64,000 nt of DNA from a bacterium (GTDB lineage: Bacteria > Electryoneota > B3-LCP). The first letter of the stretch is position 1. Each line of letters starts with the position of its first letter. The DNA lies in the NCBI GenBank assembly GCA_026394195.1, contig JAPKYS010000043.1, positions 83,131 to 147,130 of the forward strand, in the 5' to 3' direction. The notes beneath the pieces were generated by a model. The model searched no databases, was not told where the DNA came from, and saw nothing but the letters and a program-made list of their open reading frames with translations. The position numbers and the translations under genes were made by a program. Shown piece after piece: positions 4,006-62,799 of the stretch.

Positions 4006-4884
4006 TTGTCAAAAACCAGGAAAGGTTACGCCTTTGTCATAGCCAGCTCCTTTTTTACCGGGATAATGTACTCCCTCGGAAAGGTGGTGCTCGAAGAAAT
4101 CACGCCGGTCCACATGATCGGTTTGATTTTCTCTGTTTCGGTGCTGCCGCTGGCGGGTTGGTCGATTGCCAATGGCGAATGGAGACAGTTCAGAAATTGT
4201 ACGCGCCGTGATTGGCTCTATATTATTGCCTTCAGTCTGACCTCCATTGCGGCGTTACTTGCCATGTGGACGGGTATCGAGCATCTTGACCCGACGGTCG
4301 CCAGTTTCATCGGGCGGTTGCAAACGTTGGTGGCGGTCTTTTTGGGTATCCTCTTTTTACGCGAACGCTTTCATCTGTCCGAATTCGTTGGCGGGCTGAT
4401 CGTTATCGTCGGTATCGTGATCATCCGCATCTCCTTCGACGTCAGCCTGAGCCTATGGTTCTGGGTGATGGTCGTCAGTGCCTTCTTTTTCGGCGTCACA
4501 GAAGTTTATGCCAAGTTATCGGTTCGCAGCCTGGCTCCCGTGCCGCTCAACCTGGTGCGGAATGGAATTATTGCCATCTTCTTTTTGGTCTGGACCTGGT
4601 TCAGCGAAGCGTCTATATTCAATCTGGGTCGGCTCTGGCCGTATATTATCGCTCTTTCGCTGGGTGGTCCGGTGGGATCGCGCCTCTGCTTTCTGTTTGC
4701 TTTGAAATACATCGACGTTTCCAAAGCCGTGCTGGTCAACCAAATGCAGCCTCTTTTCGTTTCGGCGATAGCATTTACCTTTATCGGAACCATCCCCACC
4801 CTGCAGGAATGGATCGGAGGCGTTCTGGTTTTGGGCGGGTGTGTGGTGTTGATGGGGTGGAGGGGGAAGGTAATCTCGAGGTGA
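4006..4884 (+). CDS. EamA/DMT-family membrane transporter
   Basis: About 10 hydrophobic spans arranged as a duplicated EamA-like repeat. TTG start. Confidence 0.75.
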   Translation: MSKTRKGYAFVIASSFFTGIMYSLGKVVLEEITPVHMIGLIFSVSVLPLAGWSIANGEWRQFRNCTRRDWLYIIAFSLTSIAALLAMWTGIEHLDPTVASFIGRLQTLVAVFLGILFLRERFHLSEFVGGLIVIVGIVIIRISFDVSLSLWFWVMVVSAFFFGVTEVYAKLSVRSLAPVPLNLVRNGIIAIFFLVWTWFSEASIFNLGRLWPYIIALSLGGPVGSRLCFLFALKYIDVSKAVLVNQMQPLFVSAIAFTFIGTIPTLQEWIGGVLVLGGCVVLMGWRGKVISR

Positions 4885-4892
4885 GTAGTACG

Positions 4893-5600
4893 ATGAGTAA
4901 AAAGACGAGCGCCGATCCGAGGAAAGAATTTGAGGAGATGAGGGAAGCGATAACACTTCATTTTCGAGAGTGCTTTAATTATTTGGAAAATTATGATACT
5001 GTTGTAAACATACAGGACAAAGAACGTGAATTGTACCAATTCGCATCTTTCTTTTTTAAAGATCTTCGGAAAGCATTTTGGTGTACTCTTGTTCTTTGGA
5101 TTTATAAATTGACCAAAGATAAATACGTTGGCATGATTCACTTATTGAATTTTGCTGAAGAACACACCGATTTGTTCACTCGAAATGGGACAATTTCACC
5201 TGAATCCATTAAGACTGACAGAAAAACTATTGAAAAAAATCCAGAATTCATTTCGATTATGAATCGGAGACATCATTATTATGGACACTTTAATCCAGAA
5301 TTTGTGAGGCATCCAGAGCTGATGGAAAAAAAGTACCCAATCACCTGGAAGAATCTTACAGCAGCCATAGATGAAGCATGGGAAATTCTTCAAAAATATT
5401 CTTGCTCGTATGATGGTGGATGTTCTGCGAAATATTGGTTAAGAGATGGTTCCGGTGGTATAGGTAAGGTTATCGACTTGATCAGGAATCAGAGTTTGAA
5501 GATTGAGCGCGAGCAACAGGAAGAGTACAATCGTTTGTTTGGTGAAACAGGAATTAATCCAAAGGGCAACCATGGCAGCCGTCAAAGAGATTCTGATTGA
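4893..5600 (+). CDS. Hypothetical protein in a low-GC islet, with a HEPN-like R-x6-H motif (NRRHHYYGH). Candidate abortive-infection or defence effector.
   Basis: The ATG at 4893 lies in frame within the long ORF that starts at 4455. GC is about 33%, against roughly 55-60% in the flanks. It sits immediately upstream of a toxin-antitoxin pair. Confidence 0.5.
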   Translation: MSKKTSADPRKEFEEMREAITLHFRECFNYLENYDTVVNIQDKERELYQFASFFFKDLRKAFWCTLVLWIYKLTKDKYVGMIHLLNFAEEHTDLFTRNGTISPESIKTDRKTIEKNPEFISIMNRRHHYYGHFNPEFVRHPELMEKKYPITWKNLTAAIDEAWEILQKYSCSYDGGCSAKYWLRDGSGGIGKVIDLIRNQSLKIEREQQEEYNRLFGETGINPKGNHGSRQRDSD

Positions 5601-5670
5601 AAAACAAGGTTTGAAGCCAGGATGAGAACAACAGGAAGAGTACAAATGATTTTAAACAGGATAAGAAATC

Positions 5671-5895
5671 ATGCAAAAAACCGTGACGATAGAACAAATT
5701 GAAAAATCACTAGAGAGCCTTCCAGCGAATGAGCAGTTGCGATTGATTGAAAAACTTGCTCGTCTCATTCGAAAGCAGGAAAAGAAAAGAAACCAAACCC
5801 TTATCTGGTCTGATCTTTATGGAAGCGGTAAAGGTATCTGGGATGGTGAGGATGCTCAGGAGTATGTCAATCGTATGAGGGAAGACAGATCATGA
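5671..5895 (+). CDS. Type II antitoxin (small, VapB-like partner of the downstream PIN toxin)
   Basis: 74 aa. There is a 4-nt ATGA overlap with the downstream PIN gene. Low GC. Confidence 0.55.
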   Translation: MQKTVTIEQIEKSLESLPANEQLRLIEKLARLIRKQEKKRNQTLIWSDLYGSGKGIWDGEDAQEYVNRMREDRS

Positions 5896-6344
5896 CCATC
5901 AAAAGCGAGATACGCCGGATCGATACGCTCTTTATTGATACCGCGCCCATCATCTACTTTATCGAATCACACCCCCAATATGGACCGATTGTTGATGAAG
6001 TCATGCAGTCGATGCAACGGGGAAATCTTTTCGGCCTTTCATCCGTCATCACGTTGACTGAAGTCTTACCAAAACCCACAGAATTAAAAAAAGAAGATCT
6101 CGTAAAAAAATTCATAACTTTCTTAAAAAACGGTCAGAATTTTGAGTTACTTGATGTTAATCTAAACATAGCCGAGTTAGCCGGTCGGATGCGAGGAATG
6201 TATCCCTCGCTGAAGACAATCGATGCAATTCAGCTTGCTACTGCAATTGAGGTGAAAGCAGACGCCTTTTTAACCAATGACCTTAGACTAAAACAAATCA
6301 GGGAAATCCGGGTAATTTGTTTGAAGGATTTCCTAAAACAATAA
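5892..6344 (+). CDS. vapC: PIN-domain toxin (VapC-like ribonuclease)
   Basis: Acidic PIN residues are present (FIDTAPIIY..E...T..E......DAIQLATAIE....LTND). Confidence 0.8.
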   Translation: MTIKSEIRRIDTLFIDTAPIIYFIESHPQYGPIVDEVMQSMQRGNLFGLSSVITLTEVLPKPTELKKEDLVKKFITFLKNGQNFELLDVNLNIAELAGRMRGMYPSLKTIDAIQLATAIEVKADAFLTNDLRLKQIREIRVICLKDFLKQ

Positions 6345-37076: not shown

Positions 37077-38888
37077 ATGAGCTATCTCGATCAAGCTATT
37101 GAAAAAGGATATGCCATAATAACAGGTGAAGAAAACAAAAAACGCATCACCTACATGGCTGTTAATCACTCTGAAAGATATTCAGATCCGGAGGAACAAG
37201 TCCGCGCAGAGTATTGGGCTGAATTAATTTTTCGATACGGCTATGAACCTTCCCGCATCGGCGTTGATGTTACTGTTCCAGATAGAACTCCCAAGGATGC
37301 GGCAGATTTAGTTGTATTCTCAAATGATACTCGCACACGACCTTTCGCGGTAATCGAATGCAAACGAGATGGCGTAACCGATGCTGAATTCGCTCAAGCC
37401 GTCGAACAAGCTTGCGGCAACGGCACCTGGGCGAAATTCCGCGCCCAATACATCGGTGTTATCGCCGGGCAGACCCGCCGTTTCCTCGATTTCTCCGAAA
37501 AATATGGCGTTCTGGAACGTGAGGCTAACATTATCGCTGATTTGCCTCGCCAGTACGGAAAACCAGAGGAATGGCGTTTTCTAAAAGGCACCGCAGACGA
37601 TATCCAGCCTGTCAGTAAAGAAACCCTCATAGCCACCATAAAAAAATGCCACCAAACCCTATGGGGTGGCGGGCGCTTATCTCCCCCCATGGCTTTCGGT
37701 GAATTATGCAAACTCCTCTTTGTAAAAATCCAAGACGAAAAAGTACCACGGAAAAATGGTCAACCCTATGAATTTCAGATAAAAACTCACGAGCCAAGCC
37801 GTAAGCTCGCTGAACGAATCAAAGCTATTTATGAAATTGCTAAGAAAAAAGATCCGCAAGTATTCACCGACACAATTCGTATAGATGATGCAACATTGCG
37901 CATCCTTGTTTCACATATGGAAGCAGTAAGTTTCAGCAAGACCGATTTAGATACGAAAGGTGTCGCCTTCGAGCAGTTCATGGATGGATTTTTCAAAGGA
38001 GATTTTGGGCAATACTTTACACCACGGGAAATTATTGCATTCGCAGTTGAAATGATGCAACCTAAATCGGATGATTTAGTTATCGATCCAGCTTGCGGCT
38101 CTGGCGGTTTCCTTCTTTATGCTCTTGATTCAGTTCGTCGCGAGGCTGCAAGTTATCATGCTTTGGATAGCGTGGATCATTACAAACATTGGCACGATTT
38201 CGCAGAAAAACGCCTCTTTGGTATCGAAATCAATGACGAGATCGCCCGAGTTGCCAAGATGAATATGATCTTACATGACGATGGCCATAGTAACGTCGTT
38301 GGTGAAGACGCTTTAGATCGTTTCGAGCGCATTCGTGAACGCACCAGTAATAATGGGTTTAAAGAAAATAATTTCGATCTAATTTTGACTAACCCTCCAT
38401 TTGGCTCGCAGGTCAATTTGACGGAACGACCTTACTTATCCGATTATGAACTTGGTAATAAGGAGGATAAGAAAGGAAAACGTTCCCCACGTACGAACCA
38501 AAAAACGGAGATACTCTTTATCGAGCGTGTCTTCCAATTTCTAAAGGCTGGAACCGGTCGCGCGGCCATGGTTTTGCCGGATGGAATTCTTACAAATTCA
38601 TCTCTTCAAGATGTCCGAGATTTTATACTTAAAAACTTCCAACTTCTTGCTGTAGTAAGTTTACCACAGACTTCTTTCGCTCATTTCGGTGCAGGAGTTA
38701 AAGCAAGTCTAGTTTTTCTCCGTAAACGGGCAGATAATGAAAAGTCCAGCGATAATGAAGCAATCTTCATGGCCACGCCTGAGAAAATCGGGTATGACGC
38801 AACGGGCCGTAAGTGCGATAATCAGTTGCCGGAAGTTATCAAGCAATACGTTGAATTCAAGAAGAACCCGGCACGTTTTTTCGTCTAA
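37077..38888 (+). CDS. Type IIB (BcgI-like) restriction-modification catalytic subunit: an N-terminal PD-(D/E)xK endonuclease domain fused to a gamma-class N6-adenine DNA methyltransferase
   Basis: Nuclease motif D..LVVF ... VIECKRD. Methylase motif I VIDPACGSGGFL and motif IV LILTNPPFG. The length (603 aa) and domain order match the BcgI A subunit. Confidence 0.7.
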   Translation: MSYLDQAIEKGYAIITGEENKKRITYMAVNHSERYSDPEEQVRAEYWAELIFRYGYEPSRIGVDVTVPDRTPKDAADLVVFSNDTRTRPFAVIECKRDGVTDAEFAQAVEQACGNGTWAKFRAQYIGVIAGQTRRFLDFSEKYGVLEREANIIADLPRQYGKPEEWRFLKGTADDIQPVSKETLIATIKKCHQTLWGGGRLSPPMAFGELCKLLFVKIQDEKVPRKNGQPYEFQIKTHEPSRKLAERIKAIYEIAKKKDPQVFTDTIRIDDATLRILVSHMEAVSFSKTDLDTKGVAFEQFMDGFFKGDFGQYFTPREIIAFAVEMMQPKSDDLVIDPACGSGGFLLYALDSVRREAASYHALDSVDHYKHWHDFAEKRLFGIEINDEIARVAKMNMILHDDGHSNVVGEDALDRFERIRERTSNNGFKENNFDLILTNPPFGSQVNLTERPYLSDYELGNKEDKKGKRSPRTNQKTEILFIERVFQFLKAGTGRAAMVLPDGILTNSSLQDVRDFILKNFQLLAVVSLPQTSFAHFGAGVKASLVFLRKRADNEKSSDNEAIFMATPEKIGYDATGRKCDNQLPEVIKQYVEFKKNPARFFV

Positions 38889-38989
38889 GCCCCGCCGAAC
38901 CGGGCAAGGCGAACTGCTTTGCCGTCAAGCGGGGCGTAACGAAAGAGCGGTTTGATCCCAAATTTATTATTCATGGTGGCAATCAAACT

Positions 38990-40270
38990 TTGAAGGGAAT
39001 AACTTCTTACTTACTAGGTGATTTAGTCGTGCGAGAACCGGAATATGGTTCGGGCGAAAGAGCCGTACCAGTTAGAGATCCAAATGATATAAAATATATT
39101 CGTATCACTGACTTCAATGACGACGGAATTGTACCTGCCAACGAATTTGCCACTGCTGAGAATATCGAAGACCGATTTCTGCTGGCTGATGGTGATATTC
39201 TATTTGCAAGGAGCGGAGCAACAGCGGGCAAGACATTTATCTTTTCGTCAGAAATAGGGAAATCAATATTTGCGGGCTACTGTATTCGATTCAGGTTCGA
39301 TATCAAAAAGGTCATTCCTAAGTTCGTTTACTATTATACGAAATCAAATCGTTATCGGGCATGGGTTCGATCGATTCAACGTCCTTCCGGTCAACCGAAC
39401 ATCAATAAGGAGGAGTTTAAATCATTTACTATTCCCCTTCCTCCCACGTCCGTTCAGCTTAAGCTTGTTCGAGAGATGGAGCAAGAGCAAGAATCAAGGC
39501 GTCGCAATTTGGAACAGGCTGAAGTTCTACTTGATGGATTAGATGCATTTCTTCTTGATTGTATTGGGCTAGCTATACCTATGCTAGATAATCGCTTGGC
39601 TTATGCTTTGAAGCAATCAGTGCTTCATAGGTCGAAACAGATCGGGGCGGATTATTTTCATCCAGAACGAATTAATGCAATTAGGGCTATCCAGACAGCG
39701 AAAAAAGTAAAGCACGCCGTGCGACTGGAAGATATCGCCTGTTTCTTGCGTGATTATACAACCGAATATAAACCGGAGCAATACCTAGGACTAGCAGGGG
39801 TTCAAAGCCATACTGGTGAACTAACCGAAACAACAGAAGAACCAGGCTCAGGGCAAGCTTCGATCTTCGAGGAAAACGATGTATTGTTCGCTCGCTTGCG
39901 CCCCTACTTGAATAAGGTTTGGCGAGCAGAACAGGACGGCGTATGCTCGACAGAATTTCACGTTATCCGTATTAGGAATGATGTGAATTACCTGCTGCCT
40001 GATTATCTCGCGGCTGTCCTGCGTTCGTCTGTCGTTGTTGCTCAGACCAAACATATGATGACTGGCAACACCCACCCACGACTCGCCAACGAGGATGTTG
40101 TGGACTTGCTCATTCCTATACCCAGCATTAATATGCAGCATGAGGTCGTGGAAGAATTACAAAACCGTCGCATGCAGGCCCGCCGCCTGCGCGAAGAAGC
40201 GGCTAAAGAGTGGAAGGCGGCTAAGGCTCGTTTTGAGGAAAAGTTGTTAGGCGAGGAGAAAATAAAATGA
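38990..40270 (+). CDS. Restriction-modification specificity (S) subunit with two target-recognition domains
   Basis: Duplicated TRD architecture with a central conserved region and a C-terminal coiled region (EELQNRRMQARRLREEAAKEW). TTG start. The reading frame is open for about 45 more codons upstream with no canonical start codon. Confidence 0.72.
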   Translation: MKGITSYLLGDLVVREPEYGSGERAVPVRDPNDIKYIRITDFNDDGIVPANEFATAENIEDRFLLADGDILFARSGATAGKTFIFSSEIGKSIFAGYCIRFRFDIKKVIPKFVYYYTKSNRYRAWVRSIQRPSGQPNINKEEFKSFTIPLPPTSVQLKLVREMEQEQESRRRNLEQAEVLLDGLDAFLLDCIGLAIPMLDNRLAYALKQSVLHRSKQIGADYFHPERINAIRAIQTAKKVKHAVRLEDIACFLRDYTTEYKPEQYLGLAGVQSHTGELTETTEEPGSGQASIFEENDVLFARLRPYLNKVWRAEQDGVCSTEFHVIRIRNDVNYLLPDYLAAVLRSSVVVAQTKHMMTGNTHPRLANEDVVDLLIPIPSINMQHEVVEELQNRRMQARRLREEAAKEWKAAKARFEEKLLGEEKIK

Positions 40271-40938
40271 ATCAATCACTAATCTATCTGATGGATGAAA
40301 TTTGCGCAGGTGTAGAAATCTACTTTACGGGTCGCTTAGGGAGTCAGTATTTAAAAACTGCCTTTCTTCTATGTGATGATTATTCAGAGCTTATCTCAAA
40401 ACTTTTCCTACTTATCGACAATCCGAAATGGACCGAGATGAAAGCCAATTCTAATTTTAAAAGTTACCCAGATATAATGGCTGAGGTAGAAACAACTACT
40501 TCAAAAAATAATCCTAATAAATTGGAAAAAGTAAGAGAATTGATTAGCGCAATGAAAAAACGTAGAAAGCGCCGTAATGACTTTTTTCATTCTACGAGTC
40601 TACTTGATTTGAGCGTAACGAATAGAAATTGTGTCGAAGCCTTTTGTGATCTTCTAGAATATGGGGATATTTTGTTTGGGGTAAATTGGCGCACGACGTT
40701 AGAAGGTTCTAGAAATCTATCGACCTTTGATGTATTGCTCCGGTTAGAAAGGCATTCATTTTCTGATCCATCAATCACTCAAAAAATGAATCGTGTTCTG
40801 CAGAATTGGCCTAGAAATATTAAAAATGCGAAGCGGGCAGGTGTCCATTTGGCAGAATATCCAGAAGACCTTCATCTAAGACTGTGTGTAACCTGGGGAG
40901 GAAACGAACTTAGAGATAAATTAAAAACTTTACTCTGA
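40267..40938 (+). CDS. Small low-GC protein with a HEPN-like R-x4-H motif (RRNDFFHS), translationally coupled to the S gene
   Basis: ATGA overlap with the S-gene stop. GC is far below the neighbouring genes. No family assigned. Confidence 0.45.
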   Translation: MNQSLIYLMDEICAGVEIYFTGRLGSQYLKTAFLLCDDYSELISKLFLLIDNPKWTEMKANSNFKSYPDIMAEVETTTSKNNPNKLEKVRELISAMKKRRKRRNDFFHSTSLLDLSVTNRNCVEAFCDLLEYGDILFGVNWRTTLEGSRNLSTFDVLLRLERHSFSDPSITQKMNRVLQNWPRNIKNAKRAGVHLAEYPEDLHLRLCVTWGGNELRDKLKTLL

Positions 40939-53540: not shown

Positions 53541-54488
53541 TTAGGAAAACAGCTCAATTTTTCTCATCAGGAAGGTCCATTCCCGGTCGACACGCTGCTG
53601 CATGAGCTGCAAGTCCTGTTCTTTCAAGTGCTTAAAGCGTCCCTGCAGGCGGACGTATTCCTGCACCGGCACCCCTTTGGACGCGTGGTTGATGGTGTAT
53701 CTGGTTCCGTTTTCGACCTCGTAGAGCGGAAATACCTTGGTTTCAACCGCCAGTCGGCTGATTTTAATGGAGTCGCTTTCCAGCGACTTGTGCCCGGGCG
53801 GGCAGGGGCTGAAGATGTGGATCAGCCTCATCCCCTTGGTGGCTTTGGCTTTTTCCAGCTTTCTCCTGAGATCATCCGGAAACGCGACCGTCGCCGTGGC
53901 AGCATAGGGAATACGGTGCGCTGCCAGAATTTCGACCAGGTTCTTTTTGGGTTCTTCCTTGGGATGTTCGCGTGGTGTGGTGGTCGTCCAGGCGCCAATG
54001 GGAGTCGATGAAGAGCGCTGAACGCCGGTGTTCATGTAGGCTTCGTTGTCGTAGCAGACGTACAGGATATTTTCGTTCCTTTCTGCAGCTGCCGATAGAG
54101 CGCCAAAGCCAATATCCATGGTGCCGCCGTCACCTGCCCAGGCGACGACGTTCACGTCTTGAACGCCTTGAACGTCGAGACCATGGCGCACCCCGGTTGC
54201 AGTGATGGCGGCGGTCTCGAAGGCGCAGTGCACCACGGGCACTCCTGCCGCTGAATAGGGGAAGGGTCCGTCAATCACCGCCCAGCAGCAGGCGGGGATG
54301 CAGAGGACGGTGCGGGGTCCGAACACCTTCAGCGCGATGCGCATCGCCAGGGAAGCTCCGCACCCCGGACAAGCCAGGTGACCGGACGACATCAGTTCGC
54401 ATTCCGGTAGATCGTAAGTGATTTGACCAGGTACATGAGGGGACATCTTTATCTCCGTAGAGTCATTGATTCCTGTAGTAAGCTGCAC
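53541..54488 (-). CDS. porB: Pyruvate/2-oxoacid:ferredoxin oxidoreductase beta subunit (TPP-binding)
   Basis: TPP motif GDGG...N near CPGC and the typical PorB length. Confidence 0.85.
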   Translation of the reverse strand: MQLTTGINDSTEIKMSPHVPGQITYDLPECELMSSGHLACPGCGASLAMRIALKVFGPRTVLCIPACCWAVIDGPFPYSAAGVPVVHCAFETAAITATGVRHGLDVQGVQDVNVVAWAGDGGTMDIGFGALSAAAERNENILYVCYDNEAYMNTGVQRSSSTPIGAWTTTTPREHPKEEPKKNLVEILAAHRIPYAATATVAFPDDLRRKLEKAKATKGMRLIHIFSPCPPGHKSLESDSIKISRLAVETKVFPLYEVENGTRYTINHASKGVPVQEYVRLQGRFKHLKEQDLQLMQQRVDREWTFLMRKIELFS

Positions 54489-56083: not shown

Positions 56084-57244
56084 TTATGCCTTCAATTCGA
56101 TCCAGTTCAGGTGTCGTTCTGTCTTTTCCGGATGCAGGGTCTTCTCCAGAATTTCGGTGATGGTCTTCGGCGTAATGTCCCGTCCGCCTAAGCCCGCGAT
56201 GAACCCGTAGATCGCGGGGCGAAAGCGCTCTTCCATATCGTACATGGAGGCTTTGATTTCCTGAGCGAAGATGCCGCCGAAACCCGGGCAGATATTGCGG
56301 TCGATGACGCCGACCTTGGGGATGCCGCGCAGCGCATCCCGCACCAGCGCAATGGGGAAGGGGCGGAAAGTGCGAATTTTTAGCAACCCCACCGCTTCGC
56401 CGCGATCGCGCCACTCGTCGATTACGTCTCGGGCGGTGGAAGTCACCGTCCCCGAGGTGACGATGACGGCTTCTGCGTCTTCGCAGCGGTACGGTTCGAT
56501 CAACCCATAAGACCTGCCGAAGTGCTGAGCGAATTCCCGATCCACCTCCGCGGAAACCCTGAGTGCGTCGTTCATGGCTTCCTGCTGCATGTAGCGGAAT
56601 TCCATGTAGACGTCCACTCCGGTCATACCGCCGAAAGCTCTGGGGTTGTCGACGTCAACCTTGATATCCGCCCGGTAGGGAGGCAGGAAGGCGTCGACTT
56701 CCGGAGCTTCGGGGATGTCGATGGCTTCAGCGGTGTGAGAAAGGTAGAAGGCGTCCAACACCAGCATCACCGGCAGCTTGATGGTTTCCGCTATTTTAAA
56801 GGCTTGCAGGGCCGTATCCAGCACTTCCTGGTTGGATTCGCAGTAGAATTGCAGCCAGCCGGTGTCGCGCTGCGACAGGGTATCGTTCTGATCGGTCCAG
56901 ATAGTCCAGCCGGGAGCCATGGCGCGATTGACGTCCGCCAGTACGATGGGCAGGCGCGCTCCCGCCGCCCAGTGGATCAGTTCGTGCATCAACGCCAGAC
57001 CTTGCGCCGACGTGGCGGTAAAGGAGCGAGCTCCGGTGAGGGAAGCTCCGATGCACCCTGCCAGCGCCGAGTGTTCGGATTCCACCTTGATGAAGCTGGC
57101 GTCCAGCTTTCCCTCTGAAACCAGGTCAGCTAACTCTTCGATGATGGAGGTCTGCGGAGTAATGGGGTAGGCGGATACGACCTGCGCGCGGGCTCTCATC
57201 ACGCCCCAGGCCACCGCTTGATTTCCAGTTAAGACTTTTTGCAT
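56084..57244 (-). CDS. porA: Pyruvate:ferredoxin oxidoreductase alpha subunit
   Basis: 386 aa PorA pattern (MQKVLTGNQAVAWGV...). Confidence 0.88.
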   Translation of the reverse strand: MQKVLTGNQAVAWGVMRARAQVVSAYPITPQTSIIEELADLVSEGKLDASFIKVESEHSALAGCIGASLTGARSFTATSAQGLALMHELIHWAAGARLPIVLADVNRAMAPGWTIWTDQNDTLSQRDTGWLQFYCESNQEVLDTALQAFKIAETIKLPVMLVLDAFYLSHTAEAIDIPEAPEVDAFLPPYRADIKVDVDNPRAFGGMTGVDVYMEFRYMQQEAMNDALRVSAEVDREFAQHFGRSYGLIEPYRCEDAEAVIVTSGTVTSTARDVIDEWRDRGEAVGLLKIRTFRPFPIALVRDALRGIPKVGVIDRNICPGFGGIFAQEIKASMYDMEERFRPAIYGFIAGLGGRDITPKTITEILEKTLHPEKTERHLNWIELKA

Positions 57245-57261
57245 GGATGATTCTTTATGGT

Positions 57262-57876
57262 TTATAGGCCAAGTTCGCGGAGGAATTTCGCGAACGAGGG
57301 ACTTCTTTTTTTGATTTGTGGATCCTTCATCTTCAGTGATTTCGCCAAGCTTGGTAAATGTTTTGTTTTGTGATATGAATTATTCTTATAGAAGCCATCG
57401 CGGAGTATTTTTATCGCATCTTGACAATCCGCTCGATTTTTTACCCGATTTGCAACTTCTTTCTTCTCGAACAACTTACAATTGAAAACTTCTTGATCCG
57501 CCAAAACCCAATTTTCCACCATGTGGTCAGCGCAAATGACCGAGAAATTTCTTGCAGTAATTCCGTTCACCTGTTCTTCAATTCTATCCCTAACCATTTC
57601 AGCAAATTCCCCCGGGCATTGGGGATTATCTTCCCGATCAAACACAAGGACTATCTTTTCTGGTTTTCTTTTTAAAGCCGCCTCAACCTGTCGGAAAACT
57701 TTTGGACTTACCCGCAGCTGTTGATTTCTAAAGGTTATTGCTTCAGTTTTTCGTGCCTCGCTGACCAATAAGTTGAATAATCTCAAAATATACGGCAGTA
57801 CTTGATACTCGGATTCACCTGGCACCAATAAGACTATTTTCGGACGATTTAACTTTGGAGGTTTATTCTTCTTCAT
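57262..57876 (-). CDS. Small TOPRIM-like protein (resembles the DUF4276/OLD-family nuclease core), partner of the upstream ABC ATPase
   Basis: Conserved acidic motifs KIVLLVPGESE, KIVLVFDREDN and ICADHMVENW. The start overlaps the ATPase stop by 14 nt (or 47 nt if the GTG at 57909 is used). Low GC. Confidence 0.55.
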   Translation of the reverse strand: MKKNKPPKLNRPKIVLLVPGESEYQVLPYILRLFNLLVSEARKTEAITFRNQQLRVSPKVFRQVEAALKRKPEKIVLVFDREDNPQCPGEFAEMVRDRIEEQVNGITARNFSVICADHMVENWVLADQEVFNCKLFEKKEVANRVKNRADCQDAIKILRDGFYKNNSYHKTKHLPSLAKSLKMKDPQIKKRSPSFAKFLRELGL

Positions 57877-59182
57877 CTTCGTCGAATAATGGTAATTGAA
57901 CAGGAACACCGCCTAATGCGCCCGATTCCCAGTACTCCCCGGGTTTCATGATTTTTTCATCAACGATTTCAATCAACTCAGGATTTTTTTCTAGAGCGGA
58001 TCGGATAATTGTTTCGCCTCTCCGATTCCTTTCAATTATATAAAGCGATTTTGGAGGCACTTCGTTTACAATATCCGTTGAGTGCGTTGCAAGCACAATC
58101 TGTCTTCCTCCTTCACTCTCCTCAACGCAAGTTCTCACAAAATGCTTTTGTATCCACGGGTGCACGCTGTTCTCTGGTTCATCGTAGGCAGCAAATTGAA
58201 CGTCCTCATGTACCAAAGGAGTGAAGAGCGCTAGCGCCTGAATTGAACCATCAGAGATGTCCTTTAGATGCCAAGGACGCTTAATTCCGCTCTCTTTAAA
58301 ATTATAGCTGAGCTGTTTGTTATCAGTATAGTATAAGTTTATAGACTCGAGAGTTGGTACGACTATTTTAAGATGATCAAACAATTCTTCGTAAGAATCA
58401 GGTATCTCTTTTTGGAGATATCTTATAATCGCAGCAAGGTTTGTTCCCTCGGCATTTAATAGTGTTCCTGCGGCAACTATGTCACGCACCGGCTGCCTTG
58501 CCTCATCGGGAATTAGATGATAAGTTCGGCAACCATCAAAATAATCAAGAAAAGAAGTGAGAAGTGGATTTTGATTCCACCCTGCTACGATTAACTCTGA
58601 ACTGCCTTTCCCCTCATGGAAAAAAGGACCATTATCAATGGCTGGTTGAAAGAAATCTAGTAATTCACTTTTTTTTAGCGAATCGGTTACTTTCTTATCT
58701 AGTTCCCATTCGAGTGGTTTGCCCTTCTCGCGCAGTAGATGAAATAAACGACCTCCTGCATTTGCAGCATACACTTCTATCTCGAAATTCTCAAATGGAA
58801 CTTCATAGGGTGAATCAATTGTTGTCTCCGAAGATTGAAAAGCAAAGGAATACTTCCAATTAATTTTACCGATTATTAGAGATTTTTGATTTTCGTCACC
58901 AGGGTAAACCTTTCGAATATTATCCCATTCTAGCTCAAAATCGAACCTAATTGCTTTTTTTGATCTACGAATTCTTCTATAACAGATATTTTCATAACCA
59001 CCAAATTTATCGACTGAGTTTGATAAACCTTCTCTCATGACGCTAAAAAGAAACTCCAACGCCTTCACAAAATTCGATTTCCCTGACGAGTTCGCTCCTA
59101 CCAATACCATAAACGGCGGCATGGGGTCAATGACGACGTCCCGCAGCGATTTGAAATTCTGGATGTGTAATCGGGTGATCAT
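57863..59182 (-). CDS. AAA_21/ABC-type ATPase of the OLD / PARIS-AriA / Septu-PtuA kind
   Basis: Walker A LVGANSSGKSN, ABC signature ISDGSIQALAL, Walker B FAAYDEPENSVHP and H-loop LATHS. Low GC. Confidence 0.8.
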   Translation of the reverse strand: MITRLHIQNFKSLRDVVIDPMPPFMVLVGANSSGKSNFVKALEFLFSVMREGLSNSVDKFGGYENICYRRIRRSKKAIRFDFELEWDNIRKVYPGDENQKSLIIGKINWKYSFAFQSSETTIDSPYEVPFENFEIEVYAANAGGRLFHLLREKGKPLEWELDKKVTDSLKKSELLDFFQPAIDNGPFFHEGKGSSELIVAGWNQNPLLTSFLDYFDGCRTYHLIPDEARQPVRDIVAAGTLLNAEGTNLAAIIRYLQKEIPDSYEELFDHLKIVVPTLESINLYYTDNKQLSYNFKESGIKRPWHLKDISDGSIQALALFTPLVHEDVQFAAYDEPENSVHPWIQKHFVRTCVEESEGGRQIVLATHSTDIVNEVPPKSLYIIERNRRGETIIRSALEKNPELIEIVDEKIMKPGEYWESGALGGVPVQLPLFDEDEEE

Positions 59183-59348
59183 TTCTTCACCTCATGTGCT
59201 TGTTTTTTCACTTCCACACCTCATCTCCAACCAGCCATTCACCGATTTCTTTCGCCACCAGGCGGCTGCCACCGGCTCCGAGTACGCTGCCGCTTTGTGC
59301 TTATTCCGGTTTCCCAGATTTGATTTATTAGAGGGAGACGTTAAGAAG

Positions 59349-59963
59349 CTATAAATATTTGCGCCAAATTCCGCGACCTGATTTTCCGCGCCGCACGGCG
59401 CATTCAAATCCAGCATGTTCGAAAACGGATTCAAGACCAGTCCAGACGAAGACATCCGGCAGTTTTCCGGATTTCAAATGTGCCGGATAGCCTTCGATGA
59501 CCGTCGCGCCATGCTCTTTGGCGAATTTTGTCGCCGCTTTCAACAATTCAAGAGTCAAGCCGCACTTTCGTTCTTTCCTGGCGATGAAAAAGCAGACCAC
59601 CGACCAGGTTGGCAGATCGTCGATGGGAGCCAATACCTTAGAGCGAGACAGCAGATAATAGGCGCTCCTCGGACCGACGGCGACCCAACCCACCGGCTCA
59701 CCGGAACGAATTGCGATCAGTCCAGGAATTTCACCGCTTTCCACGAGGCGCTGCATGGCTGAGTGATTCCCTTCGCCCTTGGTTTTAGCAAAATCCGCAG
59801 AGGATAAGCGCCAGTGCATACACCAGCAGCCTCCGCAAGCGCCGTTGGCTCCGAAGAGTTTTTCCAGATCCTTCCAGCGGTCCGGTGTGACCGGAACTAT
59901 TTCCAGATTATCCAACGTTCTCTCTCCCGATTTTCCAGACCGTCTCGGTGCAGCAGGCGTCAA
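59349..59963 (-). CDS. GNAT-like acetyltransferase family protein
   Basis: Conserved GGCWCMHWR-containing N-acyltransferase-like fold. Moderate confidence. Confidence 0.5.
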   Translation of the reverse strand: MTPAAPRRSGKSGERTLDNLEIVPVTPDRWKDLEKLFGANGACGGCWCMHWRLSSADFAKTKGEGNHSAMQRLVESGEIPGLIAIRSGEPVGWVAVGPRSAYYLLSRSKVLAPIDDLPTWSVVCFFIARKERKCGLTLELLKAATKFAKEHGATVIEGYPAHLKSGKLPDVFVWTGLESVFEHAGFECAVRRGKSGRGIWRKYL

Positions 59964-59989
59964 AGTCGAGTCGGGGCAATTTCATATCA

Positions 59990-60472
59990 TCACCTGAAAC
60001 TCGATATTCGTTCGGTAATCGCCGCGGCCAGAGCATCCGGTTCGTCAGTGCCGATGCGGATGATGCGGTCCTGGTCTTTCAGCGCCAATTGCACGGCATC
60101 CGGTCCCGAAATATTGTAGAGCCAACCTCGGGGAATCTTATGGACGCCATACCCCCAAAACCAGGAATTGCGCACGGTTTTGCATCCAATAATCTCAGAA
60201 AGTTTGAACTTCTTGGATACGACTCCGATACCGAAAGATACGACAATCCATTCCGGGTCGATGCGGACGGTCAAGCTGTGAAAGATGAGGATGGTAAAAA
60301 GGAGGATAATTGTCGCTCCTCCGATTATCCAGAGAATGATTTGTGTCTCCTCGGCAGACTGCCCCACTTTCAGGCTGCCATTCAGCGCCAACCAGACAAT
60401 GGACAGCATCGCCACTGCCGATGCTCCCATGATAATTCGCACCAGAGTCCCCGGCTGGGTGTGCTGATACAA
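59990..60472 (-). CDS. Hypothetical membrane protein (two N-terminal TM segments plus a PH-like soluble domain)
   Basis: ORF with a hydrophobic N-terminus. No family assigned. Confidence 0.4.
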   Translation of the reverse strand: MYQHTQPGTLVRIIMGASAVAMLSIVWLALNGSLKVGQSAEETQIILWIIGGATIILLFTILIFHSLTVRIDPEWIVVSFGIGVVSKKFKLSEIIGCKTVRNSWFWGYGVHKIPRGWLYNISGPDAVQLALKDQDRIIRIGTDEPDALAAAITERISSFR

Positions 60473-62238: not shown

Positions 62239-62799
62239 TCAGGCCAGAACCAATTCTCTCATGGAATTATACGCGTCCACCGCCGCGGCAGCGTTGGCTT
62301 CTGTCTTGAAGGGGACTTCTTCCTTGACCGCGGCAACCACGGATTCGATCTTCACCAGGCCGGTCACCCTGGCAAGAGCTCCTAAAACTGCTGTATTCAC
62401 GATTGGCTGTGTGATCGAACCTAATTTGTGCTGAATGGCGATGTGAGCCGCGTTGACGCAGACGATGCGATACCGGTCGGGTAGATTGAGTTCGGATGGA
62501 TCTTTGTCCGTATTGACCAGGATGGTGCCGCCATCTTTTAATCCCAGAGTCACGTCGTAAAATTGGATCAGTGACGGGTCGAGAATGACCAGGTGATCCG
62601 GGCTGTAGACCTGTGTCCTAAGCCGAATCGGTCGATCCGAAATACGCACGAAGGTCATTACTGGGGCTCCACGGCGCTCCACCCCGAAGGTGGGGAAGGT
62701 CTGAACGAATTTACCTTCTTTGAAGATCGCTACAGCCAGCAACTTTCCGGCGATTACGCCGCCCTGTCCGCCGCGGCTATGAAATCGTAGTTCTATCAT
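62239..62799 (-). CDS. porG: Pyruvate:ferredoxin oxidoreductase gamma subunit
   Basis: MIELRFHSRGGQGGVIAGKLLA... is typical of PorG. Confidence 0.85.
   Translation of the reverse strand: MIELRFHSRGGQGGVIAGKLLAVAIFKEGKFVQTFPTFGVERRGAPVMTFVRISDRPIRLRTQVYSPDHLVILDPSLIQFYDVTLGLKDGGTILVNTDKDPSELNLPDRYRIVCVNAAHIAIQHKLGSITQPIVNTAVLGALARVTGLVKIESVVAAVKEEVPFKTEANAAAAVDAYNSMRELVLA

Follow-up and report, generated by a model that had tools for sequence, protein, structure and literature searches.

Two adjacent minus-strand genes lie directly 5′ of porA in the pyruvate:ferredoxin oxidoreductase (POR) operon of the window, that is, the whole 64,000-nt stretch of DNA analysed here (Table 1). The upstream gene codes for an ABC ATPase and the downstream gene for a DUF4276 protein, whose open reading frame extends from 57262 to 57909 with an ATG at 57876. 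The ORFs are in different frames and give two separate polypeptides, and the 14-nt overlap between them makes translational coupling plausible, as had been proposed when the two low-GC genes were first described. Their GC content is 0.41 (ATPase) and 0.40 (DUF4276) compared with 0.52–0.59 in the neighbouring operon genes, and their GC3 is 0.36 and 0.40 compared with 0.56–0.73; across the window's 47 long ORFs, mean GC is 0.517 (sd 0.052). The initial annotation placed the pair between porA and the porD-like and porG genes, which is correct on the porA side, but the other flank is a GNAT acetyltransferase gene, and this gene together with a 160-aa membrane-like ORF separates the pair from the porD-like fusion gene and porG. 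The genes flanking the pair are thus por subunits, the GNAT gene, the membrane-like ORF and a gene for a PMT_2 protein. Because the pair is packed tightly against porA, it is probably co-transcribed with the por operon, judged purely from spacing and the absence of consensus signals. In the GNAT–ATPase spacer no minus-strand terminator-like site was seen, and promoter-like and terminator-like sites occurred at chance frequency in a scan that leaves out FCB-type promoters. Moreover, no direct or inverted repeats bounding the pair, no adjoining tRNA or integrase gene and no Rfam match in the pair region were found, and no defence-related genes adjoin the pair, the nearest such islets being more than 17 kb away.

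Table 1. Features of the ATPase–DUF4276 pair and its flanks (window positions)
Feature	Position	Strand	Remarks
HEC-01A-type ABC ATPase gene	57863..59182	-	439 aa
HEC-01B-type DUF4276 / Toprim-like gene	57262..57876	-	204 aa from ATG at 57876
14-nt overlap of ATPase stop and DUF4276 start (ATGAAGAAGAATAA)	57863..57876	-	read from sequence
porA (POR_N + PFOR_II), downstream flank of slot	56084..57244	-	
GNAT acetyltransferase gene, upstream flank of slot	59349..59963	-	
Spacer, DUF4276 stop to porA start	57245..57261	-	17 nt
Spacer, GNAT stop to ATPase start	59183..59348	-	166 nt; GAGGTGA 6 nt 5′ of ATPase ATG
Walker A, G29ANSSGKS36	59075..59098	-	read from sequence; G29, G34 and K35 invariant in 51 homologues
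ABC signature, S310-D-G-S313	58244..58255	-	S310 at least 90% conserved; G312 invariant
Walker B, FAAYD334E335PE	58172..58195	-	E335 invariant
H-loop, LATH367S368	58079..58093	-	H367 at least 90% conserved; S368 invariant
P19-G-E-S-E23, immediately following predicted strand beta1	57808..57822	-	P19 in place of the canonical Toprim Glu/Asp
D80-R-E82, following predicted strand beta3, DxD-equivalent	57631..57639	-	invariant in alignment A3
E121-N-W123, start of helix after beta4	57508..57516	-	E121 in 141/141 representatives

The larger protein had been described as a 439-aa ABC/AAA_21 ATPase with Walker A, signature, Walker B and H-loop motifs, and this description stands, since the motifs can be read directly from the sequence and the protein matches Pfam AAA_15 (3.9e-23) and AAA_21 (1e-22) above their cut-offs. 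The motifs are intact throughout the clade of copies embedded in por loci (see below); residue 334 in Walker B is D in this clade, whereas 103 of 107 other homologues have E. The best PADLOC match is HEC-01A (1.3e-50), and the structural model resembles an SMC/Rad50-like ABC head that also lies near the ATPases of retrons, PtuA, AriA and GajA. A RecF-, SbcC/Rad50- or SMC-type ATPase with a housekeeping role in DNA repair or the chromosome, the case that would speak against a defence-type module, finds weak N-terminal matches to SMC_N and RecF in its favour, but such matches span residues 1–50 only or fall far short of the cut-off (RecF, 28 bits compared with 172). This reading is hardly credible, because the model shows no long coiled coil, partners of the Mre11/SbcD or RecO/RecR kind are absent, a DUF4276 protein is the obligate partner, and the gene is distributed patchily among close relatives. 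RecF/SbcC identity was ruled out, the models covering residues 1–50 alone with scores far under their cut-offs.

The small protein had been called a Toprim-like partner of roughly 205 aa resembling DUF4276, and both parts of this proposal hold. It matches Pfam DUF4276 (PF14103) with 41.3 bits against a gathering cut-off of 30.2 (E 2.6e-10), its best PADLOC match is HEC-01B (3.1e-15) and its top seven matches are all HEC-01B models, and the motifs GESE (residues 20–23), FDREDN (79–84) and CADH (115–118) can be read in the sequence. The model of the protein is confident and comes closest to the Toprim regions of OLD nucleases, the closest solved structure being the BpOLD C-terminal region. A Pfam search of the protein gave no Toprim-family match, so that the Toprim assignment rests on this fold comparison and on the literature, in which DUF4276 is placed in the Toprim superfamily and described as having a DxD motif as well as a conserved Glu (PMC12065111); a search of the DUF4276 alignment profile against PDB sequences gave nothing meaningful. 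Homologues were collected by an exhaustive representative search, which gave 178 cluster representatives at E ≤1e-3, and a word-indexed protein search returned the protein itself only.

The putative nuclease site departs from the family at specific positions. Of 141 family representatives, 130 have D or E at position 19, and proline occurs there in the por-embedded clade only, replacing the canonical Toprim acidic residue in every embedded copy. Full-length embedded copies also exchange two conserved arginines (R118 to His and R193 to Pro). The site is otherwise kept, with E23 (E in 128/141 representatives), D80 (139/141), E82 (135/141), E121, K170 and conserved serine residues all present; E121 is the sole invariant acidic residue of the family and is probably equivalent to BpOLD E508. 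The three replacements suggest that the effector may work differently from typical members, or weakly. Absence of the canonical acidic residue is unexpected in an active nuclease, yet BpOLD tolerated the single change E400A and was still active in vitro.

Pfam and PADLOC searches had been proposed for both proteins; they matched AAA_15/AAA_21 and DUF4276, with HEC-01A and HEC-01B as the best systems models, and detected neither a helicase nor DUF4435, in agreement with the initial annotation. Together with the OLD-Toprim-like model of the small protein, these matches indicate that the ATPase-plus-Toprim reading is right. As judged from sequence, the pair is a member of the two-gene module of ABC ATPase and DUF4276 protein catalogued as PADLOC candidate HEC-01.

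We then compared the pair across genomes. The GNAT|porA junction carries it in seven distinct contigs (the window, L001, L002/3, L004/12, L005, L143 and L144), and the porA genes of these contigs have LCP-89 MAGs as their closest relatives. In the six contigs in which the pair–porA junction is readable, the pair ends 14–24 nt 5′ of porA; spacing on the GNAT side is more variable, with 55 nt in L001, 32 nt in L004 and a 4-nt overlap in L005. The GNAT gene is kept in LCP-89-type loci with or without the pair. In the close relatives L008 and L014 the slot is empty, leaving a GNAT–porA spacer of 61–63 nt, and the 18 nt before porA are identical in L014 and the pair-bearing L004; in L009–L011 the slot holds a GDSL-type hydrolase gene instead. 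The pair is thus lost, or its slot otherwise occupied, in close relatives. Outside por loci, the contexts examined were L006, L007, L140, L141, L142 and the viral contigs L096 and L099, and in all of them the ATPase gene is followed on the same strand by the DUF4276 gene, overlapping it or at most 134 nt apart. The pair had been put forward for a conservation check, and the same gene order was found in all homologous loci examined, including the seven por-embedded contigs. In Ferribacterium the pair adjoins HsdR, Fic, an SLFN-like gene and integrases. Because the broad DUF4276 alignment was too variable, the scan of viral contigs was seeded with the ATPase alignment; it gave 52 loci, two or three of them with DUF4276 as well. 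A metagenome scan with the clade alignment returned no contig beyond the known ones.

From its position and low GC, the pair had been read as horizontally acquired. Compared with the por operon of most phyla, in which gltD/Fd and porA are contiguous, the pair is indeed an accessory insertion, and this contiguity, with the GC contrast in the window, would favour a newly arrived island. However, a recent arrival is very improbable: seven divergent contigs hold the pair at this junction, with 39–69% identity among the copies (47–69% for the ATPase, compared with no more than 39% to the other homologues found), and non-synonymous divergence is the same as in the GNAT gene next to it, ATPase dN (0.23–0.46) tracking GNAT dN (0.23–0.44) genome pair by genome pair. 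Moreover, no flanking direct or inverted repeat, integrase or tRNA target was found, and low GC occurs in every copy, the five long loci having values of 0.34–0.45 in the pair and 0.44–0.63 in flanking genes, and the two short contigs 0.36–0.37 compared with ∼0.58 around the pair. The pair still lies 15–25 points under the adjacent por and GNAT genes. Hence low GC is a persistent property of the pair and not a sign of recent arrival, and the earlier claim finds no support where acquisition is read as recent. Synonymous sites of the pair are saturated (pS at least 0.77; pN 0.20–0.37), so that its dN/dS is not computable; that of porA is ∼0.06. On the sequence comparisons, the pair is old at the GNAT|porA junction and has co-diverged with its neighbours, its lineage having stayed at one operon site across a candidate phylum.

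We consider it fairly probable that the pair is an old HEC-01-type module, probably co-transcribed, whose nuclease site has been remodelled. On the analogy of PARIS, OLD and Gabija, the ATPase, which has the full set of motifs for ATP binding and hydrolysis on an SMC/Rad50-like head lacking a long coiled coil, would dimerise on ATP and serve as both sensor and gatekeeper. The small protein would be an Mg-dependent, nucleic-acid-cleaving Toprim effector, which the ATPase may either keep inactive or activate upon detection of an invader. Defence genes do not typically stay fixed for long inside a core metabolic operon, and the fixed place of the pair over long divergence counts against a defence reading.

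This fixed place, 14–24 nt before porA in six readable contigs of seven, would fit a domesticated module that is no longer defensive in this lineage and has a cellular role tied to the por operon, for example ATP-gated RNA processing or turnover, or a coupling of metabolic state to growth arrest. Toprim RNases exist, such as RNase M5 and AriB. Purifying selection on the protein (pN well below pS), the clade-specific exchange in the Toprim protein of three charged residues that are conserved elsewhere, with the rest of the site kept, and the lack of adjoining defence genes are also consistent with domestication. Nevertheless we hold it to be unlikely, because the close relatives without the pair (L008 and L014 with an empty slot, L009–L011 with the hydrolase gene) have intact and highly conserved por genes, which shows that POR function does not need the pair; moreover, family members elsewhere lie in unrelated, defence or mobile contexts, and the persistent AT-richness is typical of accessory genes. 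In its fuller form, this would be a defence-type pair captured long ago as an integral, co-transcribed part of the por operon in LCP-89-type bacteria, its site rebuilt and its role now cellular rather than, or beside, defensive, which we likewise regard as doubtful.

The patchy distribution within the clade and the loss of the canonical catalytic residue could instead point to a selfish or addictive passenger, a toxin–antitoxin-like pair of little or no benefit to the host whose nuclease may be decaying. Such a pair would persist either through the harm done by losing it or through the lethality of imprecise deletions in an essential operon; AAA_21 is listed in Pfam as a putative toxin domain of the AbiEii type, and the genes overlap tightly in an operon with strongly constrained flanks, as the dN/dS of porA indicates. 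But clean losses exist in L008 and L014, the latter sharing the sequence before porA with L004. All seven copies are open frames that keep most family-conserved residues, which speaks for functional selection and against decay, and we therefore judge a passenger improbable.

For the preferred reading, an old HEC-01-type module, the pair is not new as a type of system and adds one more HEC-01 member, but the clade itself is noteworthy. It provides a clear case in which neither low GC nor an odd position signals recent acquisition, the pair having stayed AT-rich at one core metabolic junction throughout saturating synonymous divergence. The proline in place of the Toprim acidic residue is a natural active-site variant with which the needs of DUF4276 effector activity may be probed, and, if the pair is indeed expressed with POR, a defence-type module would be dosed by a central metabolic promoter.

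Among known systems that combine an ABC ATPase with a Toprim domain, the OLD proteins share with the small protein the motif order ExxxE…DxD/E…E…K save the first E, as far as the mapping can be drawn. In class 1 and class 2 OLD proteins (P2 Old and TsOLD; BpOLD, XcOLD and GajA) the ATPase and Toprim domains are fused, whereas here they are encoded by two ORFs, on which ground class 1 and class 2 identity was rejected; sequence similarity is confined to the ATPase N-terminus. Gabija was set aside too, since no UvrD/PcrA/Rep-like helicase (GajB) adjoins the pair, its neighbours being the GNAT gene and porA. PARIS, the best-understood model of ATPase-gated release of a Toprim tRNase, has the same split layout of an ABC ATPase (AriA) and a separate Toprim effector (AriB), but its partner is a DUF4435 protein of ∼300 aa compared with a DUF4276 protein of ∼200 aa here. 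The small protein gave no DUF4435/AriB match in Pfam or PADLOC at E ≤1, and AriA models matched the ATPase at 2.4e-24, far more weakly than HEC-01A, so that PARIS identity was rejected. Menshen shares the Pfam family DUF4276, which in this three-gene system is the C-terminal effector domain of NsnC (PMC12065111), whereas the window protein stands alone with its own ATPase; the NsnB model (3.2e-20) and, for AbiL, the AbiLi model (1.4e-24) matched the ATPase more weakly than HEC-01A, and both systems were discarded.

The initial annotation knew of no named system with this composition, but HEC-01 consists of an ABC ATPase and a separate DUF4276/TOPRIM protein, and Mad3/Mad4 of MADS are homologous. 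MADS is a methylation-associated defence system in which deletion of mad3 or mad4 lowers defence (bioRxiv 10.1101/2023.03.30.534895), and its mandatory genes are Mad6-8. The pair resembles Mad3/Mad4 in combining an AAA ATPase with a DUF4276 protein, and both window proteins match the MADS models weakly (ATPase, NF047739, 85.2 bits where the cut-off is 420; small protein, NF047734, 16.6 bits where it is 160). Both scores fall far short of these equivalog cut-offs, and neither the mandatory Mad6-8 nor methyltransferase or specificity genes adjoin the pair, so that the pair was not assigned to MADS. HEC-01 (Hma-embedded candidate 01) was defined as an ABC ATPase with a TOPRIM protein whose metal site is, according to its authors, conserved with BpOLD, and the one representative they tested did not protect E. 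coli (Payne et al., bioRxiv 10.1101/2024.01.29.577857). A cold-seep representative protected E. coli from at least one of T4, T5 and T7. HEC-01 is thus a widespread candidate defence family for which experimental support is thin and conflicting. The pair shares with it the adjacent, co-oriented genes, one for an ABC ATPase (AAA_15/21) and the other for a small DUF4276/TOPRIM protein encoded separately; it differs in belonging to a deep clade in neighbour-joining trees (built without support values), found so far only in contigs with LCP-89-like por genes, and in the missing canonical Toprim acidic residue of this clade. Like the family as first found, nested within another gene cluster (Hma), the window copy is a nested module, but its host is the metabolic por operon instead of the Hma defence system.

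The pair is embedded in a minus-strand pyruvate:ferredoxin oxidoreductase (por) operon, the members of which are listed in the table. In the gene order given by ORF calls and domain identification, the pair sits between GNAT and porA; the initial annotation was thus right about the porA flank and wrong about a porD-like/porG flank, as a GNAT acetyltransferase gene is the actual upstream neighbour. The ATPase gene is preceded by an SD-like GAGGTGA, and its end overlaps the DUF4276 start by 14 nt (ATGAAGAAGAATAA, read directly from the sequence). The ATPase and DUF4276 genes have GC of 0.41 and 0.40 and GC3 of 0.36 and 0.40, neighbouring operon genes have GC of 0.52–0.59 and GC3 of 0.56–0.73, and the mean GC over 47 long ORFs of the window is 0.517 (sd 0.052). 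The porD-like ferredoxin domain forms the C-terminal part of the 568-aa protein, which also contains Fer4_20 and Pyr_redox_2 (GltD-like NAD(P)H flavoprotein). Most of 80 loci, from many phyla, have this fusion gene between porG and porA. The 160-aa membrane-like ORF has no Pfam match. Nearly all LCP-89-type loci have this ORF and GNAT (59349-60472, minus) between the fusion and porA; the scan of more distant loci detected neither. Both diverge fast compared with por genes (identity 40–54% and 53–74%, respectively).

Features of the por operon and its variable slots (window coordinates unless a comparison locus, L, is named)
Feature	Position	Strand	Remarks
porG	62239-62799	minus	first in minus-strand order
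GltD-like flavoprotein + ferredoxin domain fusion (GltD/Fd), 568 aa	60483-62189	minus	after porG
Membrane-like ORF, 160 aa	59990-60472	minus	after GltD/Fd fusion
GNAT gene	59349-59963	minus	directly before pair
ABC ATPase gene	57863-59182	minus	439 aa; upstream member of pair
DUF4276 gene	ORF 57262-57909	minus	ATG at 57876, 204 aa; downstream member of pair
Small protein residues 115-118	57523-57534	minus	clade-fixed C115, H118
Small protein residues 192-194	57295-57303	minus	including P193
porA	56084-57244	minus	directly after pair
PMT_2-type membrane glycosyltransferase, 495 aa	54529-56016	minus	after porA; porA-porB slot
porB	53541-54488	minus	after PMT_2-type gene
Secreted or membrane-anchored hydrolase gene, 350-376 aa	L009 5806-7960; L010 6885-7949; L011 6907-7956; L002 4802-5878		GNAT-porA slot
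porA-porB slot, L001	9173-9694		173-aa ORF
porA-porB slot, L002	9248-13299		three Por_Secre_tail proteins
porA-porB slot, L004			nothing present
porA-porB slot, L013 and L030			>5 kb between porA and porB

Direct reading of both proteins recovered every motif previously listed: Walker A (G29ANSSGKS), signature (S310DGS), Walker B (YD334E335PE) and H-loop (ATH367S) in the ATPase, and GESE, FDREDN and CADH in the partner. The ATPase belongs to AAA_15/AAA_21 (Pfam, E about 1e-23) and the small protein to DUF4276 (Pfam, 41.3 bits; gathering score 30.2), and the best PADLOC-DB match of both is the candidate anti-phage system HEC-01 (HEC-01A, 1.3e-50; HEC-01B, 3.1e-15). In the same database the ATPase matched the AriA, AbiLi, mad3, NsnB, GajA and Old models far more weakly than HEC-01A, and the small protein matched no AriB or DUF4435 model. 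The AlphaFold model of the small protein, built from 51 homologues, is confident (pLDDT 94.7), and that of the ATPase (pLDDT 91.7) is an SMC/Rad50-type ABC head without the long coiled coil. These matches and models bear out the structural reading as an ABC ATPase with a Toprim-like partner. Identity as a RecF/SMC/Rad50 repair ATPase is contradicted, the NCBIfam matches to models of these families being limited to about the first 50 residues.

An exhaustive search returned 178 DUF4276 cluster representatives at E ≤1e-3; ATPase homologues at E ≤1e-10 number 117. Conservation of the pair across genomes was confirmed, in that the ATPase gene is followed by DUF4276 on the same strand, overlapping or ≤134 nt apart, in every additional locus examined (L006, L007, L140, L141, L142 and the viral contigs L096 and L099), and the GC of the pair is below that of its flanks in all of them. 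The pair adjoins HsdR, Fic, an SLFN-like gene and two integrases in Ferribacterium, and has housekeeping-like neighbours in the others.

Among ATPase homologues with an examined context, the four closest (44–48% identity, BLASTP) occupy the same por position in other metagenome contigs, with the layout porG, GltD/Fd fusion, 160-aa ORF, GNAT, ATPase, DUF4276, porA (L001, L002/L003, L004=L012, L005). The two closest DUF4276 cluster representatives, P0119 (50%) and P0120 (40%), lie on short contigs (L144 and L143) where porA starts about 18–20 nt past DUF4276, and the distinct instances at this position number seven. In a scan of species-representative genomes, the nearest porA relatives (78–83% identity) were LCP-89 MAGs and MAGs labelled Calditrichaeota or Zixibacteria. 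In most other phyla, porA and porB come immediately after the GltD/Fd fusion. In the close group, what occupies the GNAT-porA junction differs among loci: L008 and L014 have nothing there (spacer 61–63 nt), L009, L010 and L011 have one or two 350–376-aa ORFs related to a GDSL-lipase-annotated L002 gene, L002 has both this GDSL-type hydrolase and the pair, and the remaining loci that extend across the junction have the pair alone. The L009 hydrolase is present as two tandem copies, and for the L002 copy Pfam gives a weak Lipase_GDSL_2 annotation. In the porA, GltD/Fd fusion and GNAT trees (neighbour-joining, without support values), carriers and non-carriers are intermixed. Between L004, which has the pair, and L014, where the slot is empty, nucleotide identity is 86% in porA versus 67% in the genes upstream of the slot, and an identical 18-nt stretch (TCGAGATAAACAACCATG) precedes porA in both; this mosaic suggests recombination at or near the slot. 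A second slot, between porA and porB, is also variable in content; the por operon in this lineage tolerates unrelated genes at two junctions.

The embedded ATPases are mutual closest relatives (47–69% identity versus ≤39% to anything else), and their dN (0.23–0.46) closely matches that of GNAT in the same genome pairs (0.23–0.44), where porA has a dN of 0.08–0.12. The simplest history is one ancient insertion, followed by vertical descent under purifying selection and several clean losses. All embedded copies are AT-rich (GC 0.34–0.45 and GC3 0.23–0.46, versus 0.44–0.63 and 0.52–0.79 in the flanks). Because synonymous sites of the pair are saturated (pS ≥0.77; pN 0.20–0.37), this low GC must be maintained, whether through selection or through exchange in an AT-rich pool. 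The initial annotation took position and GC as marks of horizontal acquisition; as a recent arrival this is contradicted by seven instances at one junction, a dN that tracks GNAT and a persistently low GC, and low GC here is no mark of recent arrival.

Two other low-GC islets are present in the window. The first (37077-40938, plus strand; three ORFs, GC 0.44, 0.46 and 0.37) encodes a methylase of the type I R-M kind (N6_Mtase; PADLOC MTase_I, 1.7e-132) together with a specificity subunit (Methylase_S). An overlapping ORF of 223 aa, for which neither Pfam nor PADLOC gave a match, could be an unrecognised partner. No HsdR is adjacent; the next ORFs encode an M6 peptidase and a beta-propeller protein bearing T9SS sorting domains. 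The other (4455-6344, plus strand; GC 0.45 and 0.41) encodes a 381-aa HEPN_AbiU2-domain protein (4.8e-09) and then a 150-aa PIN-domain protein, neither with a PADLOC match.

The DUF4276 stop lies 14–24 nt ahead of the porA start in all six loci with a readable junction, no minus-strand terminator-like site was found in the region scanned, and promoter-like sites occur there at chance frequency; thus the pair is probably transcribed together with the por genes. Between GNAT and the ATPase gene the spacing varies, from an overlap of 4 nt in L005 up to 166 nt in the window. No Rfam family match was found in the region, and no flanking repeats around the pair.

The Toprim site of the embedded clade is remodelled. 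The position right after predicted beta1 (19) is D/E in 130 of 141 family representatives; of these 141, the window protein, P0119 and P0120 are the only ones with Pro. Translated copies from L001, L002, L004 and L005 share this Pro, in the motif LLVPG[E/D/Q]SE. In the six full-length embedded copies (the L005 copy, cut short before residues 118 and 193, is not among them), R118 (95/141 representatives) is replaced by His and R193 (107/141) by Pro, with C115 and C151 as further clade-fixed residues. The window protein retains E23, D80, E82, E121 (an invariant family residue), N122, W123, D127, D150, Y168, K170, S192 and S194, all but Y168 invariant in the six copies too. From motif order and predicted secondary structure rather than superposition, positions 19, 23, 80, 82, 121 and 170 would correspond to E400, E404, D455, D457, E508 and K562 of BpOLD. 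Since E400A alone had no discernible effect on BpOLD in vitro, where triple changes abolish cleavage, Pro19 is no proof of inactivity. On these residue patterns, we take Pro19 to mark a functional shift of the DUF4276 protein in this clade. Embedded ATPases keep every catalytic motif; their only notable change is at the first acidic residue of Walker B, which is D instead of E.

By analogy with PARIS, OLD and Gabija, the ATPase would sense and regulate in an ATP-dependent manner, and the DUF4276 protein would be a metal-dependent nuclease effector. Both would be made together with POR. Defence is the most likely role and on balance a probable one, given the precedent of the family and the patchy occurrence of the pair among relatives; domestication to a cellular role, or persistence as a selfish passenger, is in either case unlikely.

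HEC-01 as defined by Payne et al. (10.1101/2024.01.29.577857) is an ABC ATPase with a separate TOPRIM protein, nested in Hma defence systems; these authors describe a metal site in common with BpOLD, and their representative gave no protection in E. coli. A cold-seep study counted HEC-01 among the commonest candidate types and found one representative protective against at least one of T4, T5 and T7. DUF4276 has been placed in the Toprim superfamily with Mad4 of MADS as a homologue (PMC12065111), and deletion of mad3 or mad4 weakens MADS defence (10.1101/2023.03.30.534895); the window proteins differ from MADS in matching NCBIfam MAD3 and MAD4 below threshold (85 versus 420 bits and 16.6 versus 160 bits). 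The PARIS paper lists DUF4276 among partners used for annotating AAA_15/21 defence ATPases. Given these descriptions of HEC-01, MADS and PARIS, the earlier view that this composition lacks a named system is outdated. The literature searched does not mention DUF4276 in a por-operon context. Hence the system type is already known, and its por-embedded, Pro-bearing clade is, as far as that literature shows, a new variant.
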